Source: Actinomycetales bacterium (GTDB taxonomy: Bacteria; Actinomycetota; Actinomycetes; Actinomycetales; CAWJMD01). Taken from it: 31,648 bases of DNA. Positions 329-8,985 of the stretch are shown piece after piece. The first letter of the stretch is position 1. Each line of letters begins with the position of its first letter. The stretch covers positions 1-31,648 of the forward strand of contig JBDIAG010000001.1 of the NCBI GenBank assembly GCA_039812305.1. The letters are read 5' to 3'. Below the pieces are notes generated by a model that was given only the letters and a program-made list of their open reading frames with translations, was not told the origin of the DNA and searched no databases. A program made the position numbers and the translations under genes.

Positions 329-1537
329 TCAGCCGGAGGTGACGACCGACTTCAGGGCGTCGGCGCGGTCGGTGCGCTCCCAGCTGAATTCGGGCAGTTC
401 GCGCCCGAAGTGGCCGTAGGCGGAGGTCTGGGAGTAGATCGGGCGGAGCAGGTCGAGGTCGGCCACGATCGCGGCCGGACGCAGGTCGAAGACCTCGCGG
501 ATGCCCTTGGTGATCGACTCGACCGAGACGTTCTCGGTGCCGAAGGTCTCCACGTAGAGGCCGACCGGGTGGGCCTTGCCGATCGCGTAGGCCACCTGCA
601 CCTCGCACCGGGACGCCAGGCCCGCGGCCACGACGTTCTTGGCCACCCAGCGCATCGCGTAGGCGGCGGAGCGGTCGACCTTCGACGGGTCCTTGCCGGA
701 GAACGCGCCGCCACCGTGGCGGGCCATGCCGCCGTAGGTGTCGACGATGATCTTGCGCCCGGTGAGGCCGGCGTCGCCCATCGGGCCGCCGATCACGAAC
801 ACCCCGGTCGGGTTGATGAAGGTGCGCATCCCGCTGGCGTCGAGCTCGACCCGCTCCAGGACGGGCGTGATCACGTGCTCGAGGATGTCCGGCGTGAGCA
901 GCGACTCCAGGCTGATCCCGTCGGCGTGCTGGGTGGAGAGCACGACGGTGTCGACGGTGACGGCGCGGTCGCCGTCGTAGCCGATCGTCACCTGGGTCTT
1001 GCCGTCCGGGCGCAGGTAGGGCACCAGGCCCTCCTTGCGCACCTGCGTCAGCCGCTCCGACAGCCGGTGCGCCAGCCAGATCGGCAGCGGCATCAGTTCG
1101 GGGGTGTCGTCGCAGGCGTAGCCGAACATCAGGCCCTGGTCGCCGGCGCCCTGCAGGTCGTAGGGGTCGGTGCCGCCCTCGACGCGCGTCTCGTGCGCCT
1201 TGTCCACGCCCTGGGCGATGTCGGACGACTGCTCGCCGATCGACACCTCGACCCCGCACGAGCGACCGTCGAAGCCCTTCTCGGAGGAGTCGTAGCCGAT
1301 CCGCAGCACCGTCTCGCGGACCAGCCGGGCGATGTCGGCGTAGCCGTTGGTGCGCACCTCGCCGGCCACGTGCACCAGACCGGTGGTGACCATCGTCTCG
1401 ACCGCCACCCGGCTCTCCGGGTCTTGGGCGATGAGGTCGTCGAGAATGGCGTCACTGATCTGGTCACAGATCTTGTCCGGGTGGCCTTCCGTGACGGACT
1501 CGGAGGTGAACAGACGCAGGGCGGACTCGGACAACAA
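329..1537 (-). CDS. metK: S-adenosylmethionine synthetase (methionine adenosyltransferase)
   Basis: Motifs [43 protein letters not shown] upstream; true start may be the TTG at 1534. Confidence 0.97.
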
Positions 1538-3849: not shown

Positions 3850-3885
3850 CCGGCGTGCGCCCGAACTGACCGGAGTACGCCCGAG
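3846..3885. repeat. 20-bp direct tandem duplication at the priA stop
   Basis: ctgaccggcgtgcgcccgaa / ctgaccggagtacgcccgag. Confidence 0.7.
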
Positions 3886-3902
3886 CCGGCGACCCGCCGC
3901 GG

Positions 3903-5636
3903 TCAGCCGACGACGTCGAATCCGTCCGGGCCGACGACGAGCACCCCACCCGGGACAGTCGTCACCGTGGACGACCGGCCGGAGCCGGCGCGGAAGGCCG
4001 GTTCGTCCGAGAGTGGCTGGACGAGAACCCCTTTCGTCGAGGTGTTGGAATCGTCGACACAGGTCACGACGATCGCCTCCGGCGTGGCCGCCGCCTGGGC
4101 GACATTCGGGCAATCGGCGGGCCAGGTCACCTCGCGGATCGTCTGCAGCCGTGGGTCCCAGTACTGCCGGGCGTCCCCGCCGATGACCGGGACCGGCCCG
4201 GTCACGTACACGTAGGTGTTCGGTGGCAACTCCTGCAGCGCCCGGCCGGTGTGCGCGTCGAGCAGGACGGTCGGCAGGGCGACGCTGCCGAGCGTGAAGA
4301 AGGCGATCACGTCGCTGTGCGGGGAGGTCGCCAGGTACGGGTCGAAGGAGACCCGCTCGGAGGGAAGGGGAAGCTCGTAGGTCCAGGCGATCTTCCCGGT
4401 CCGCTGGTCCACCGCGTGCACCACGGCGTCGCCGTCGCAGCGGACCGTCCGCAGCGCCACCTCGTGGGTCGCGGCGGGGAGGGCGAACATGTACTCGCAC
4501 TCGGTGGGTGGCCGCCACCGCCACCGGTCCTCGCCGGTGCGGGCGTCGATGCCGAGCGCCTCACCGTCGGCTCCGGCGACCACCAGGGTCTCGTCGGTCA
4601 TCGTGAACAACCCCGATTCGCCCGCCAGAACGCGCTGGGCGAGCACCTCGCCGGTGAACCCGTCGAGGAAGACGACTCTCGTCGCCCGGGTGTCGCGGCC
4701 TCCGCCGGCGCTGAACGGCACGGCGACCACGGCTCCGTCCGGACTCGCGTACACCTGGAACGCGTTCGCCCCGCGCAGTTCGTACGACCAGCGCACCTTG
4801 CCGGTGGCAGCGTCGACGCCGGCGGCACCGCGGTCGGGCGCGCCGGGGTATTCCAGCACGGTGGCGAACCCGGTGCCGGCCGGGACCAGCGCGTTCTTGA
4901 CGATGCCGATGCCTCGGTCGGTGTCATCGTTGTGCCACAGGGTGTTTCGCGGAACCGGCGGTATCGGTGCGGCCTCCTGCGGGCTAGCCGTCGTCGAGCG
5001 CGCGGGCAGGTCGCGCAGCGTCGGCGCGGCGCCCGCGCCGGCGGCGAGCAGCGCTGCGCAGGTCAGGACGGCGGTGACCGGGGGCGCCCAGAGCCGGTTG
5101 GGTCCGGCCGACTCGCCGCGCGCCGGAGAGCCGGGCCGCCCGGTGGTGACCTGGGCCGCCTGGAGCGGGTTCGACGCAACGGCCGCGTCGCGACCCGGTG
5201 CGTCGGACCGCGCCTCGGTGACCTGGGTCGCCTGGGGCCGGTTCGACCGATCGCCGTCCGACGGCGCGCGGTCACGGCCCCGCACCGACAGGAGCAGGCT
5301 GATCGTGAGGACGAGGCCGCACAGGGCCAGCACCGCCAGCACCGGCCCCGGCGTCCCCCGGCCGACGTCGCGACCGAACAGCACGGCGGCGGTCACGGTG
5401 AGTGCGGCCGCGATGCCGGCCACGACCCAGGTCCCCCGGGCGCCGGTGCGCCGACCGGATGCGGAACCGTCCCGGCGGAAGGCGAGCGCCACCGCACCGA
5501 CTCCCAGGACGCCGAGGACGCTGACCGGCAGACCCAACGAGGACGGCGTCGCCGCGTCGCCGTCGAAGAGCCAGCTCGCCGCCACCGCCGCGACGATCGA
5601 ACCGAAGGCAAGGCCGAACCACCATCGGGCGAACAC
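3903..5636 (-). CDS. Membrane-anchored PQQ-like (BamB-type) beta-propeller protein
   Basis: About four N-terminal hydrophobic helices, then repeated blades (GVDAATGKVRW, GIDARTGEDRW, AVDQRTGKIAW, LLDAHTG). GAGAGGA RBS before GTG 5636. Confidence 0.75.
   Translation of the reverse strand: MFARWWFGLAFGSIVAAVAASWLFDGDAATPSSLGLPVSVLGVLGVGAVALAFRRDGSASGRRTGARGTWVVAGIAAALTVTAAVLFGRDVGRGTPGPVLAVLALCGLVLTISLLLSVRGRDRAPSDGDRSNRPQATQVTEARSDAPGRDAAVASNPLQAAQVTTGRPGSPARGESAGPNRLWAPPVTAVLTCAALLAAGAGAAPTLRDLPARSTTASPQEAAPIPPVPRNTLWHNDDTDRGIGIVKNALVPAGTGFATVLEYPGAPDRGAAGVDAATGKVRWSYELRGANAFQVYASPDGAVVAVPFSAGGGRDTRATRVVFLDGFTGEVLAQRVLAGESGLFTMTDETLVVAGADGEALGIDARTGEDRWRWRPPTECEYMFALPAATHEVALRTVRCDGDAVVHAVDQRTGKIAWTYELPLPSERVSFDPYLATSPHSDVIAFFTLGSVALPTVLLDAHTGRALQELPPNTYVYVTGPVPVIGGDARQYWDPRLQTIREVTWPADCPNVAQAAATPEAIVVTCVDDSNTSTKGVLVQPLSDEPAFRAGSGRSSTVTTVPGGVLVVGPDGFDVVG
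5073..5246. repeat. Three copies of a 30-bp motif at an exact 72-bp period inside the propeller gene linker
   Basis: Copies start at 5073, 5145 and 5217; peptides SNRPQATQVT / SNPLQAAQVT / PNRLWAPPVT at 24-aa spacing. Confidence 0.75.
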
Positions 5637-5719
5637 AGGGGATCCTCTCGTCGGGCGGGCTGGTCGGGAATCGTAGACGTTGGTCGTCGCGACGACGTTC
5701 CCGACCCGACGACGGCTGG

Positions 5720-5738
5720 TTAGGTTAGCCTTACCTTT
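5720..5738 (+). promoter_or_regulatory. DtxR/IdeR/DmdR1-type iron box overlapping the -10 of a leaderless gene
   Basis: TTAGGTTAGCCTTACCTTT matches TWAGGTWAGSCTWACCTWA at 18/19. It ends directly at GTG 5739 and contains TAGCCT 7 nt before the start. Confidence 0.8.
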
Positions 5739-7478
5739 GTGTCTGAGACAAAGCGGTCTGAACGTCGCCTCTCCGCCACCGTGCTCGTGATCGGCACCGG
5801 TGGATCCGGCCTGCGGGCCGCCATCGAACTCGCCGAGGCGGGCGTCGACGCGCTCGTCGTCGGCAAACGTCCCAAGGCGGACGCCCATACCACCCTCGCC
5901 GCCGGCGGCATCAACGCCGCCCTCGCCACGATGGACCCGCAGGACTCGTGGCAGCAGCATGCGGCGGACACGATCACCGAGAGCTATCTGCTCGCCGACC
6001 CGCGCACGGTCGAGATCGTCACCCGCAACGCGGCGCGCGGCATCGAGGATCTCGAGCGGTACGGAATGCCCTTCGCGCGGGAGGACGACGGCCGGATCTC
6101 GCAGCGCTTCTTCGGGGCGCACACCTTCCGGCGGACCGCCTACAGCGGCGACTACACCGGTCTGGAGATCCAGCGGACGCTGCTCAACCGCGCGGCGCAG
6201 CTGAACGTCCCGATCATCGACTCGATGTACGTCACGCGGCTCCTGAGCCGCGACGGAGCCGTCTTCGGCGCCTACGGCTTCGACGTGGGCGACGGCACCC
6301 GGTACCTGATCCACGCCGACGCCGTCATCCTCGCCGCCGGCGGGCACAACCGGATCTGGCGGCGCACCTCCTCGCGGCGCGACGAGAACACCGGCGACTC
6401 GTTCCGGCTCGCGGTGGAAGCCGGTGCGAGACTGCGTGATCCGGAGCTCGTCCAATTCCACCCGTCCGGCATCCTCGAGCCCGAGAACGCGGCCGGGACG
6501 CTGGTCTCGGAGGCTGCCCGCGGCGAGGGCGGCATCCTCCGGAACGCGCTGGGCGAACGGTTCATGGAGCGCTACGACGCGGACCGGATGGAGCTGTCCA
6601 CCCGGGACCGGGTGGCCCTGGCCGAGTACACCGAGATCAAGGAGGGTCGTGGCACGCCGAAAGGCGGTGTCTGGCTGGATGTCTCGCATCTGCCGCGAGC
6701 CACGATCATGCGCAAGCTGCCGCGCGTCTACCAGACGCTCCTCGAACTGCAGATGCTCGACATCACCACGAGCCCGATCGAGATCGCGCCGACCGCGCAC
6801 TACTCGATGGGCGGGGTGTGGGTGCGTCCGGAGGATCACTCGACCGACGTGGCCGGCCTGTACGCCCTCGGCGAGGCCGCCAGCGGACTGCACGGCGCGA
6901 ACCGGCTGGGCGGCAACTCGCTGATCGAACTGCTCGTCTACGGACGGATCACCGCGGCGGCCGCGGCCGCCTACGCCGACGGGCTGGACGCCCAGCGCAG
7001 GTCGGCGGACGCGGTGGCGCGGGCGCGGGCCGAGGTGGACGACCTGCTCGCCGCGGACGGACCGGAGAACGTCCGGGCGCTGCAGCGGGCCGTCCGCGAC
7101 ATCATGACCGAGTACGCGGGCGTCGTCCGCGACGAAGCCGGGCTCGTCCGCGGGCTGGCCGAACTCGACGTGGTCGAGGAGCGCGTGGCGTCGGTCGGCG
7201 TGCACCCGGACCTGGCCGGCTATCAGGATCTGGCGCACGCCTTCGACCTCAAGGCCTCCATCCTGGCCGCCCGGGCGACCCTGCAGGCCGCCCTGGAGCG
7301 GCGTGAGACCCGCGGTTGCCACAACCGCGGCGACTACCCGAATCTGGATCCGGAACTGCAGGTGAACCTGGTCTGGAGCGGTGACGGCACGGTGACGCGG
7401 GAGGAGATCGCGCCCGTGCCGGCCGAGATCGCCGCGATGATGCACGAGGTGTCGAGCACCGGGAAGTTCGTCGAGTGA
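5739..7478 (+). CDS. Stand-alone SdhA/FrdA/NadB-family FAD-dependent oxidoreductase
   Basis: GTGGSG FAD loop, AHTTLAAGG (His at the covalent-FAD position), QFHPSG, SEAARGEG, STRDRVA, HYSMGG, LHGANRLGGNSL, RRETRGCH. No Fe-S subunit gene adjacent. Confidence 0.9.
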   Translation: MSETKRSERRLSATVLVIGTGGSGLRAAIELAEAGVDALVVGKRPKADAHTTLAAGGINAALATMDPQDSWQQHAADTITESYLLADPRTVEIVTRNAARGIEDLERYGMPFAREDDGRISQRFFGAHTFRRTAYSGDYTGLEIQRTLLNRAAQLNVPIIDSMYVTRLLSRDGAVFGAYGFDVGDGTRYLIHADAVILAAGGHNRIWRRTSSRRDENTGDSFRLAVEAGARLRDPELVQFHPSGILEPENAAGTLVSEAARGEGGILRNALGERFMERYDADRMELSTRDRVALAEYTEIKEGRGTPKGGVWLDVSHLPRATIMRKLPRVYQTLLELQMLDITTSPIEIAPTAHYSMGGVWVRPEDHSTDVAGLYALGEAASGLHGANRLGGNSLIELLVYGRITAAAAAAYADGLDAQRRSADAVARARAEVDDLLAADGPENVRALQRAVRDIMTEYAGVVRDEAGLVRGLAELDVVEERVASVGVHPDLAGYQDLAHAFDLKASILAARATLQAALERRETRGCHNRGDYPNLDPELQVNLVWSGDGTVTREEIAPVPAEIAAMMHEVSSTGKFVE

Positions 7479-7868
7479 TCAGCCGGCGTAGGTGCCGAAG
7501 CTCCAGGCGTTGCCGTCGTTGTCCCGGACGGCGAAATCGGTTGAGCCGTAGTCCGTCTCCCCGAGTTCGCGGATGATCGCGGCGCCCAGCGCCTGAGCCT
7601 TGGCGAAGACCTCCGCGGGCCGGTCGGTGACGACGTAGAGGGACGCCTTGCCCACCGGCACGTCGAAGTCGCTCTCCCGGAAGGTGGCGACCATCACCCG
7701 GCCTCCCTCCGGCCAGATCATCTCGGAGTGCTGCACGACGCCGTCGTCGTCGGCGACGAGAATGCCGTCGACGAAGCCGAGTTCGCGCAACCAGGCGCGC
7801 AGTGCGAGCGGGTCGTGGCTGCTGATGGCAGACCAGATGTTGTGATCCTGTACGGGTGTCTCACTCAT
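7479..7868 (-). CDS. VOC/glyoxalase-bleomycin resistance family protein
   Basis: HSEMIWPEGGRVMV and ETDYGSTDFAVRDNDGNAWSFGTY. Start ATG 7868 (MSETPVQ). Confidence 0.85.
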   Translation of the reverse strand: MSETPVQDHNIWSAISSHDPLALRAWLRELGFVDGILVADDDGVVQHSEMIWPEGGRVMVATFRESDFDVPVGKASLYVVTDRPAEVFAKAQALGAAIIRELGETDYGSTDFAVRDNDGNAWSFGTYAG

Positions 7869-7872
7869 GACT

Positions 7873-8871
7873 TCATCCTGACGCCGTGCCGTCGCCTCGT
7901 CTTGAACCTTTGGGAAGCGTCTGCCGTCGAGAGGCCACGACCCGCCGTCGGTCGGCACCCTCCACGGCGGGTTGCGACCCCTCGACCACCTCGACGTCGT
8001 GGGTGGTGGGGAAGACCTCGGTGGCCAGCCACTGGGTCGGGGTGCAGCCCGCCAGGTCGCGCCACTCCCGGGTGAGGTGGGCCTGGTCGGCGTAGCCGCA
8101 GGCCGCCGCGACGTCCGCCAGCCTCGGCGTGGGCGTCTGGCGCACCAGGCGGTGGGAGCGTTCGAACCGCATCACCCGCGCCGCGACCTTGGGCGGGTGG
8201 CCGAACTCGGCGCCGAACCGGGTGGTCAGCTGCCGCCGGGACCAGCCGACCCGCCGGGCGACCTCCGCGACCGGGAGCGTGCCGTCCGAACCGGCGAGCA
8301 GCCGCCAGGCGTGCCAGGTCGCCGGATCCCGCTGGCTGGCGCGTTCGAGCGACGACAGGCCGCGTTCCAGCCGTCCGACGAGGAGTTGCTCGACGAGGGC
8401 CACGCGGGTCGGCCAGTCCGGTGCGGCGGCGAGACCGTCCAGCAGGTGCCGGGCGCCGGCGCCGACGACGTCGGCCAGCGAGATGACGTGGCCGGCCAAC
8501 TCCGACGACGGCATTCCGAGCAGGGCGCGGGCGCCGGCGGGGGTGAGATCCACCTCGATGCCCGCCTGATGGCCGTCGTGATGGATGTGGACCGGCGAGT
8601 CGTGGATGCCGCCGACGAGGCCGGCGAACGGGGTCGGTTCGCGCAGCGGTCGGCCCGCTCCGTCGGCAGCCCGGCCGGAGATGACGATCGCGCTCTCGAA
8701 CGGCAGGATCAGGGTCAGCGACCGGGCCGGCATACCGACGTGGGTGCCGGCGGGGAATCCGGAGAGCTGGTAGCCGATGGTCGCGGTGAAGAAGGCGCGC
8801 GTGGCCCGCTGCCCGGGAACCCGGTGCAGATGGATCGCCGTCGGCTGCGCCGGGTGAGACCTCGCGTCCAC
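7873..8871 (-). CDS. AraC-family transcriptional regulator (C-terminus altered by an insertion)
   Basis: C-terminal HTH: [15 protein letters not shown]...[35 protein letters not shown] lies 6 nt upstream of GTG (leaderless-like). Confidence 0.88.
7926..7986. repeat. 61-bp REP-like palindrome, solo copy (inverted relative to the others)
   Basis: Minus strand reads gtcgaggggtcgcaacccgcc-19 nt-ggcgggtcgtggcctctcgac; same length and arm family as 13676-13736. Confidence 0.8.
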
Positions 8872-8985
8872 ACCGGCATTGTCCTCCGCCGGCGGCGAGG
8901 GGGCGCGGCGACGGTTCGTCCTGGTTGCCAGCGGCGGGGCGGCCGCGCCACGTAGGCTGGAGCCGGTTCAAAGGGAAGGTGTGGC

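Follow-up and report, generated by a model that had tools for sequence, protein, structure and literature searches.

What does a flavoprotein of the succinate dehydrogenase (SDH) and fumarate reductase (FRD) superfamily do when its gene lies directly behind a predicted iron-responsive operator, with no gene for an iron-sulfur (Fe-S) partner nearby? The question arises from a 31,648-nucleotide stretch of DNA, hereafter the window, from an Actinomycetales bacterium (GTDB lineage CAWJMD01; assembly GCA_039812305.1, contig JBDIAG010000001.1). In the window, a DtxR/IdeR-type operator, or iron box, precedes a gene for a 579-amino-acid protein that resembles SdhA, FrdA, and TfrA. The original prediction was that this protein could be an iron-free soluble fumarate reductase or aspartate oxidase that is induced by iron starvation and spares iron. 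We propose, with moderate confidence, that it is an iron-repressed, stand-alone flavin adenine dinucleotide (FAD) enzyme of the SDH/FRD superfamily. The protein belongs to an uncharacterized orphan family that is patchily distributed across Actinobacteria and is usually encoded beside a divergent LysR-family gene. The link to iron appears to be real but lineage specific and second-hand, because the box recurs in one subclade, including the closest relatives, where it lies before a gene for a protein like siderophore-interacting proteins (SIPs).

A strong predicted operator at the start codon

The box, TTAGGTTAGCCTTACCTTT, matches the degenerate DtxR/IdeR consensus, TWAGGTWAGSCTWACCTWA, at 18 of 19 positions (one mismatch). 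This is the score that was originally claimed for it, but the claim does not carry over to the strict consensus described for corynebacteria, TTAGGTTAG(G/C)CTAACCTAA (PMC1382209), against which the box scores 16/19 (three mismatches). Dinucleotide-preserving shuffling of the window, repeated 100 times, gave no site with three or fewer mismatches. Genome-wide, one site is perfect (on contig C448), the window's box comes next with its one mismatch, and four sites with two mismatches follow. The genome also encodes one DtxR-family protein, on contig C307, which scores 298.2 bits against the NCBI DtxR equivalog model (NF053665; cutoff, 290). By its sequence, then, the window's box is a strong predicted DtxR/IdeR operator and the second-best site in the genome.

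The 19-bp palindrome and the repressor family are the same as in the DtxR/IdeR regulons of Corynebacterium and Mycobacterium, which include sites at sdhCAB. In corynebacteria, operators that lie within promoters are associated with repression (PMC1382209), and iron-repressed expression of the flavoprotein is likely. The corynebacterial sdh site is instead far upstream and is tied to activation of an iron-rich complex (PMC1382209), so a site on the start of a partner-less paralog predicts the opposite response.

The other strong boxes of the genome flank a mixed set of genes, including those for an FprA-like reductase, an ABC exporter, and an AraC-family protein encoded beside a siderophore-binding protein. 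None of these boxes has a gene for an Fe-S partner beside it. The genome's only perfect box, on C448, precedes by 66 bp a gene that is truncated at the contig end and encodes an NAD(P)H flavoenzyme (Pyr_redox_2) resembling FprA/adrenodoxin reductase; this may be a second iron-controlled flavin redox enzyme. On contig C447, a box with three mismatches lies between divergent genes for a cupin-AraC regulator and a lipoprotein. The lipoprotein has a weak match to Peripla_BP_2 (siderophore binding), below the Pfam cutoff, and the arrangement recalls the DtxR-RipA circuit.

The box directly abuts the GTG codon of the flavoprotein gene, as originally described (Table 1). The first start codon in the frame, which is open from 5724 on, is GTG 5739, and no other start could precede the conserved N terminus. 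The motif ERRLSATV, just after this codon, is conserved at the protein level in orthologs. The recorded gene call (P0002, 565 amino acids) begins at an internal GTG at 5781 and so drops 14 residues, including this family-conserved motif; because orthologs retain the motif, the recorded call is probably too short. As the box leaves no space between itself and the start codon for a Shine-Dalgarno sequence or ribosome-binding site, the mRNA is probably leaderless, which is the simplest and a reasonable inference. Hexamers of the TANNNT type inside the box suggest that it covers the -10 element, as had been proposed; one candidate is listed in Table 1.

Two other signals near the start codon were rejected. 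A terminator-like match at 5714-5730 is merely the palindrome of the box. The ERRLS motif might suggest a Tat (twin-arginine translocation) signal, but its arginines are five residues before a Rossmann strand, with no space for a hydrophobic region or a cleavage site.

Table 1. Coordinates of features in the window and of related features elsewhere
Feature	Location	Strand	Remarks
DtxR/IdeR-type operator (iron box), 19-bp palindrome	5720-5738		Directly abuts GTG 5739-5741
Candidate -10 hexamer TAGCCT (TANNNT type)	5726-5731	+	Within the box, 7 nt upstream of G5739; predicted from sequence
Orphan SdhA/FrdA/TfrA-like flavoprotein gene, 579 aa, GTG start	5739-7478	+	FAD_binding_2 and Succ_DH_flav_C; probably leaderless and monocistronic
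PQQ/beta-propeller-repeat membrane-anchored protein gene, 577 aa	3903-5636	-	PQQ_2 match; divergent from the flavoprotein gene; start at 5636, 83 bp from the box
Glyoxalase-like gene	7479-7868	-	Within the island
AraC-family gene	7873-8871	-	Within the island
5.1-kb island between priA and def	3850-8985		PQQ-repeat gene, box and flavoprotein gene, glyoxalase-like gene, AraC-family gene; absent from same-genus genomes G001 and G002
Perfect iron box, window's genome (G000), contig C448 (L090)	570-588		Upstream of the FprA-like gene
Iron box with three mismatches, window's genome (G000), contig C447 (L100)	4019-4037		Between the cupin-AraC regulator gene and the lipoprotein gene
Short SIP-like ORF, L007	3568-3960
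Short SIP-like ORF, L009	3582-3974
Short SIP-like ORF, L016	3525-3935
Short SIP-like ORF, L021	2381-2794
Short SIP-like ORF, L040	2480-2902
Short SIP-like ORF, L159	2581-2964
Short SIP-like ORF, L197	2438-2881

An SDH/FRD-type active site

FAD_binding_2 and Succ_DH_flav_C are the only domains that we found in the 579-amino-acid protein, and no curated NCBIfam model reaches its cutoff. The best model is TfrA (NF004900), which aligns end to end at 487 bits (cutoff, 718), followed by the Rv0248c-type SdhA model (NF005866; 480 versus 819) and sdhA_frdA (TIGR01812; 469 versus 567). Similarity to the nadB model (TIGR00551) is also full length (339 versus 453), and the flavocytochrome c model (TIGR01813) is far behind (146 versus 285). 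The closest relative of solved structure is SdhA of Sdh1 from Mycobacterium smegmatis (PDB 7d6v_A; 1.2e-103).

We aligned the protein with SdhA, FrdA, and NadB from the Escherichia coli MG1655 record. The catalytic set is kept, as His241, Glu258, Arg289, His354, and Arg389, and Ser257 takes the place of Thr254 of SdhA. His50 aligns with His45 of SdhA, the position of the covalent flavin (8-alpha-N3-histidyl-FAD). The alignment bears out the earlier statement that the dicarboxylate-site residues and the covalent-FAD histidine are retained.

The same alignment speaks against a second L-aspartate oxidase. Many records of orthologs carry that name, and the full-length similarity to nadB models could seem to support it. 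However, Glu121 of NadB, which serves as base toward the aspartate amino group and has a neutral residue as its counterpart in SDH and FRD enzymes (PMC10249383), is replaced by Phe125, as in SdhA and FrdA; the position of Ser389 of NadB is Gly392, as in SdhA. The score is well below the nadB cutoff, there is no nadA or nadC near the gene, and a canonical NadB, adjoining panC, is encoded on contig C39 of the same genome (784 bits; cutoff, 639). Because of the change from Glu121 to phenylalanine, the histidine at the covalent-FAD position, and the canonical NadB elsewhere, we conclude from these comparisons that the substrate site is of the SDH/FRD type, not that of an L-aspartate oxidase. The aspartate oxidase half of the original prediction is thus disfavored, and we consider it very improbable. 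Database names for the orthologs also include succinate dehydrogenase and FAD-binding protein, and our literature searches found no functional study of this SdhA-like family.

No apparent dedicated Fe-S partner

No SdhB-type or anchor gene is present in the window, as the original prediction stated for the neighborhood of the gene. In the rest of the genome, the only Fer2_3 matches are an SdhB on contig C277, which follows a Bacillus subtilis-type SdhA truncated at its contig's end, plus a weak hit on contig C122 (25 bits, below the cutoff) that, from its sequence, appears to be a CoxS-like 2Fe-2S protein. As the source assembly is an incomplete metagenome assembly (4.6 Mb in 740 contigs, 78% complete, with 5.5% contamination), we also counted these genes in four near-complete genomes with an ortholog. 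Each has three paralogs, which we read as the orphan, canonical SdhA, and NadB, and each has exactly one real SdhB, which adjoins the canonical SdhA. No additional SdhB- or TfrB-like gene was found with the SdhB-family model in these four genomes or with Fer2_3 in the window's genome. Because there is one SdhB per carrier genome and it lies beside the canonical SdhA, the orphan family thus seems to have no dedicated SdhB- or TfrB-type partner.

How does the protein compare with enzymes of known function? It shares both Pfam domains, all of the catalytic histidines, arginines, and glutamate, and the covalent-FAD histidine position with the flavoproteins of complex II (E. coli SdhA and FrdA, to which it is about 33% identical; M. 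smegmatis Sdh1). Unlike them, it has no adjoining SdhB or anchor and no spare SdhB in the genome, it is below every curated cutoff, and it has serine in place of Thr254. TfrA, the flavoprotein of archaeal thiol:fumarate reductase, gives the best-scoring curated model, but the score falls short, and the searches described above, of the four near-complete genomes and of the window's genome, found no TfrB-like Fe-S/CCG partner. Soluble fumarate reductases of the flavocytochrome c type also differ, as the window's protein has no heme or extra redox domain. The best functional analogy is NadB: it is soluble, belongs to the same superfamily, functions alone without any Fe-S subunit, and has a flavin that exchanges electrons directly. 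The window's protein differs from it in the residues described above.

The box recurs in one subclade, before a SIP-like gene

We gathered ortholog loci from species genomes (80 loci), from relatives within the order, and from metagenomes (68 loci) and scored each locus for the box, a LysR-family gene, and a SIP-like gene. There were 176 loci with over 65% identity, and 166 of them were informative, with at least 700 bp of upstream sequence. The most common layout is a divergent LysR-family gene and no box (103 of 166), and 52 loci have neither. Typing of the LysR-family neighbors with NCBIfam was uninformative: matches to GltC, CynR, and CidR were all below their cutoffs. The box is present at 11 of the informative loci, including the window, and all 11 are within or near the window's subclade. 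At eight of these loci (seven nonredundant), the box, a short SIP-like open reading frame (ORF) of 127 to 147 amino acids, and the flavoprotein gene are on one strand without a LysR-family gene. At two more, both from Herbiconiux, the unit of box and SIP-like gene is followed by a convergent LysR-family gene and then the flavoprotein gene. The remaining locus is the window, the only one where the box abuts the flavoprotein start; at all other loci with a box, the box reaches the flavoprotein gene by way of the SIP-like gene. Conversely, every locus with an upstream SIP-like gene also has the box.

The closest matches to the window are loci L007 and L009. Their boxes share the first 17 nt with the window's box and abut the ATG of a 130-amino-acid SIP-domain ORF (PF04954), just as the window's box abuts the GTG. 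The flavoprotein gene starts 8 to 35 nt past the stop codon of the SIP-like gene. No terminator-like site was found between the two genes at L007 or at L197. Across the loci with the box, SIP-like gene, and flavoprotein gene in a row, the flavoproteins show 79 to 89% identity.

The short SIP-like ORFs (Table 1) each have an iron box before them. They consist of the C-terminal SIP domain (PF04954), with no FAD-binding half, and the abutment of box and ATG at L007 and L009 suggests a leaderless start there too. A SIP-domain gene as the ancestral owner of the operator would fit the IdeR-controlled SIP/ViuB family and the SIP domain of IrtA, and at L016 the box is common to a divergent gene for an IrtA-like fusion of SIP and ATP-binding cassette (ABC) domains. 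The relatives' ORFs differ from that family in being C-terminal halves only, and the window has none.

Maximum-likelihood analysis places the window's protein with those of L007, L009, and L008 (SH-aLRT support of 100), and its closest relatives have the operon of box, SIP-like gene, and flavoprotein gene. The Herbiconiux proteins branch close to the base of the wider group to which all of the SIP-linked proteins belong. The simplest series would start from a LysR-controlled gene that came to lie next to an iron-controlled SIP-like gene, was cotranscribed with it after loss of the LysR gene, and, in the window, was fused to the operator-promoter after loss of the SIP-like ORF. In other words, in one Microbacteriaceae-type subclade the orphan gene lies just downstream of a short SIP-like gene with an operator before it, and the window appears to have lost that ORF, so that the operator-promoter now abuts the GTG. 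The lost gene does not seem to have simply relocated, because the only SIP homologs in the window's genome are distant (about 40% identity).

The flavoprotein gene is under purifying selection and is not decaying. The ratio of nonsynonymous to synonymous substitution rates (dN/dS) is about 0.12 between the window and L007 and 0.10 between L007 and L009, and a three-taxon split of the same distances gives about 0.13 for the window's branch.

An ortholog was found in none of 10 sampled genomes from the window's own family, as against 46 of 400 sampled genomes from the order, and the protein nests inside a Microbacteriaceae clade, which together point to horizontal acquisition. The orphan family also occurs in Streptomyces, Nonomuraea, and other genera. 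Homologs of 87 to 89% identity exist as protein records, including one from the cultured species Protaetiibacter intestinalis (P0008). In six loci (L011, L038, L041, L061, L065, and L086, from Streptomyces, Nonomuraea, Catenulispora, Kibdelosporangium, and Compostimonas, and mostly from outside the Microbacteriaceae), a gene for a Rossmann-type protein of about 250 amino acids often adjoins the orphan gene. From its N-terminal sequence, this neighbor seems to resemble NAD(P)H-binding proteins of the NmrA type, and sigma-factor-like genes are often near.

Proposed mechanism and alternative explanations

If the iron-repressed enzyme is the correct explanation, then when iron is present, DtxR from contig C307, in its Fe2+-bound form, would bind the palindrome and block the -10 region and the transcription start. 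Iron starvation would lift this block and yield an mRNA that is leaderless and monocistronic. The resulting cytoplasmic enzyme, probably with a covalent flavin, would oxidize or reduce succinate/fumarate or a close C4-dicarboxylate without Fe-S clusters. Catalysis would follow the usual chemistry of hydride transfer to N5 of the flavin, with Arg289 as the proton shuttle. Electrons would be exchanged at the flavin, directly with a soluble donor or acceptor as in NadB, rather than by way of Fe-S clusters.

Several observations weigh against this proposal. About 94% of the ortholog loci lack any box, and most of these have a LysR-family gene, so iron control is not a trait of the orphan family as a whole and could, in the window, be a neutral by-product of a deletion. 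The expectation that the box would be conserved upstream of orthologs thus failed for the family as a whole; the box recurs in the subclade of the closest relatives, where it precedes the SIP-like gene. The junction of box and flavoprotein gene is known from a single contig. DNA homology to L007 and L009, which is 82 to 83% across the gene, begins only at about position 5760, so the descent of the window's box from theirs is likely rather than proven: it is judged from sequence and from position relative to the start codon, and both could have arisen by convergence. A scan for consensus sigma-70 promoters detected no -35 element and no promoter at the box. Finally, the fragmented, incomplete, and partly contaminated assembly leaves room for an unlinked partner or a second regulator.

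The explanation that we take most seriously after our own is that the operator historically belonged to a SIP-like iron-uptake gene, that a deletion left the flavoprotein gene behind it, and that iron control is incidental to the enzyme's real job in the LysR-controlled metabolism of most lineages. The prevalence of the layout with LysR and without a box, the Herbiconiux loci, where the two units are merely side by side, and the uniqueness of the window's junction would all fit. However, the LysR-less operon of box, SIP-like gene, and flavoprotein gene has been kept across lineages, and in the window the flavoprotein gene is the operator's only gene and is still under purifying selection. We regard incidental control as possible but not probable. 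Another explanation is that the operator acts mainly, or also, on the divergent gene for the PQQ-repeat membrane protein. The box does lie in the 102-bp divergent intergenic region between the two genes, and single DtxR sites that act on both strands are known (PMC1382209). Yet it touches the start codon of the flavoprotein gene and is far from the ribosome-binding site of the PQQ-repeat gene, which is linked to the box or to the flavoprotein gene at no other locus. Control of the PQQ-repeat gene seems rather unlikely.

The remaining explanations accept iron control and differ in what the enzyme is for. The physiological benefit that was originally suggested is an iron-sparing bypass, in which the Fe-S-free enzyme takes over succinate/fumarate flux from the iron-rich complex II during iron starvation. 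The SDH/FRD-type active site with its histidine at the covalent-FAD position, the lack of a second SdhB, the strong operator, and the iron regulation of complex II genes in corynebacteria (PMC1382209) are all in keeping with such a role. On the other side, we identified no electron donor or acceptor, most members of the orphan family are not iron controlled, and our literature searches turned up no such substitute for complex II. We view the bypass as speculation and as unlikely. The full version, in which a soluble succinate/fumarate oxidoreductase induced by iron starvation replaces complex II and is perhaps driven, in the relatives, by the half-SIP NAD(P)H-binding protein of the same operon, seems slightly less likely still. 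In a role in iron acquisition, the flavoprotein and the SIP-like half-protein, which binds NAD(P)H, would instead be the two components of a reductase, acting for instance on ferric siderophores, and another SIP would serve in the window's genome. Short SIPs that lack the FAD half lie directly upstream of an FAD enzyme in seven lineages, and the box shared with the IrtA-like gene at L016 would fit as well. But most members of the family have no SIP neighbor, the window has lost its short SIP and the genome's other SIP homologs are distant, and the dicarboxylate site is intact, which favors a carbon substrate. We consider this role doubtful.

Genomic setting

The window has a G+C content of 70.6%, and its genes were called with a codon log-odds caller. 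Their order is metK (- strand), priA (+), the PQQ-repeat gene (-), the box and flavoprotein gene (+), the glyoxalase-like gene (-), the AraC-family gene (-), def, fmt, and rsmB. In two genomes from the same genus (G001 and G002), the gap between priA and def is about 0.5 kb, with one additional 74-amino-acid ORF in G001, and neither the PQQ-repeat gene nor the flavoprotein gene was found in these genomes. We therefore describe positions 3850 to 8985 as a 5.1-kb island. Its G+C content does not differ from that of its flanks and so gives no sign of transfer. The PQQ-repeat gene was not found in any of four genomes from the same genus or family.

The glyoxalase-like, AraC-family, and PQQ-repeat genes have no homologs beside any other ortholog that we examined, so they give no clue to function. 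The four island genes are linked to one another at no other locus examined, and the island looks mosaic. The glyoxalase-like gene is convergent with the flavoprotein gene; the two abut stop to stop (7478/7479) without a terminator between them, and their transcripts would overlap.

Implications

Already known are DtxR/IdeR boxes, SIP genes under such boxes, and canonical sdh operons controlled by iron (PMC1382209). Our literature searches turned up no orphan SdhA-like gene described as controlled by an iron box. This locus and the operons of box, SIP-like gene, and flavoprotein gene are the first regulatory clue that links part of the orphan family to iron limitation, and the locus documents the stepwise capture of a promoter.

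Known iron-sparing exchanges include FumC in place of FumA and flavodoxin in place of ferredoxin. Such exchanges would gain a new type if the flavoprotein does carry iron-free succinate/fumarate flux. If it does not, the result still corrects a common misannotation of the orphan family.

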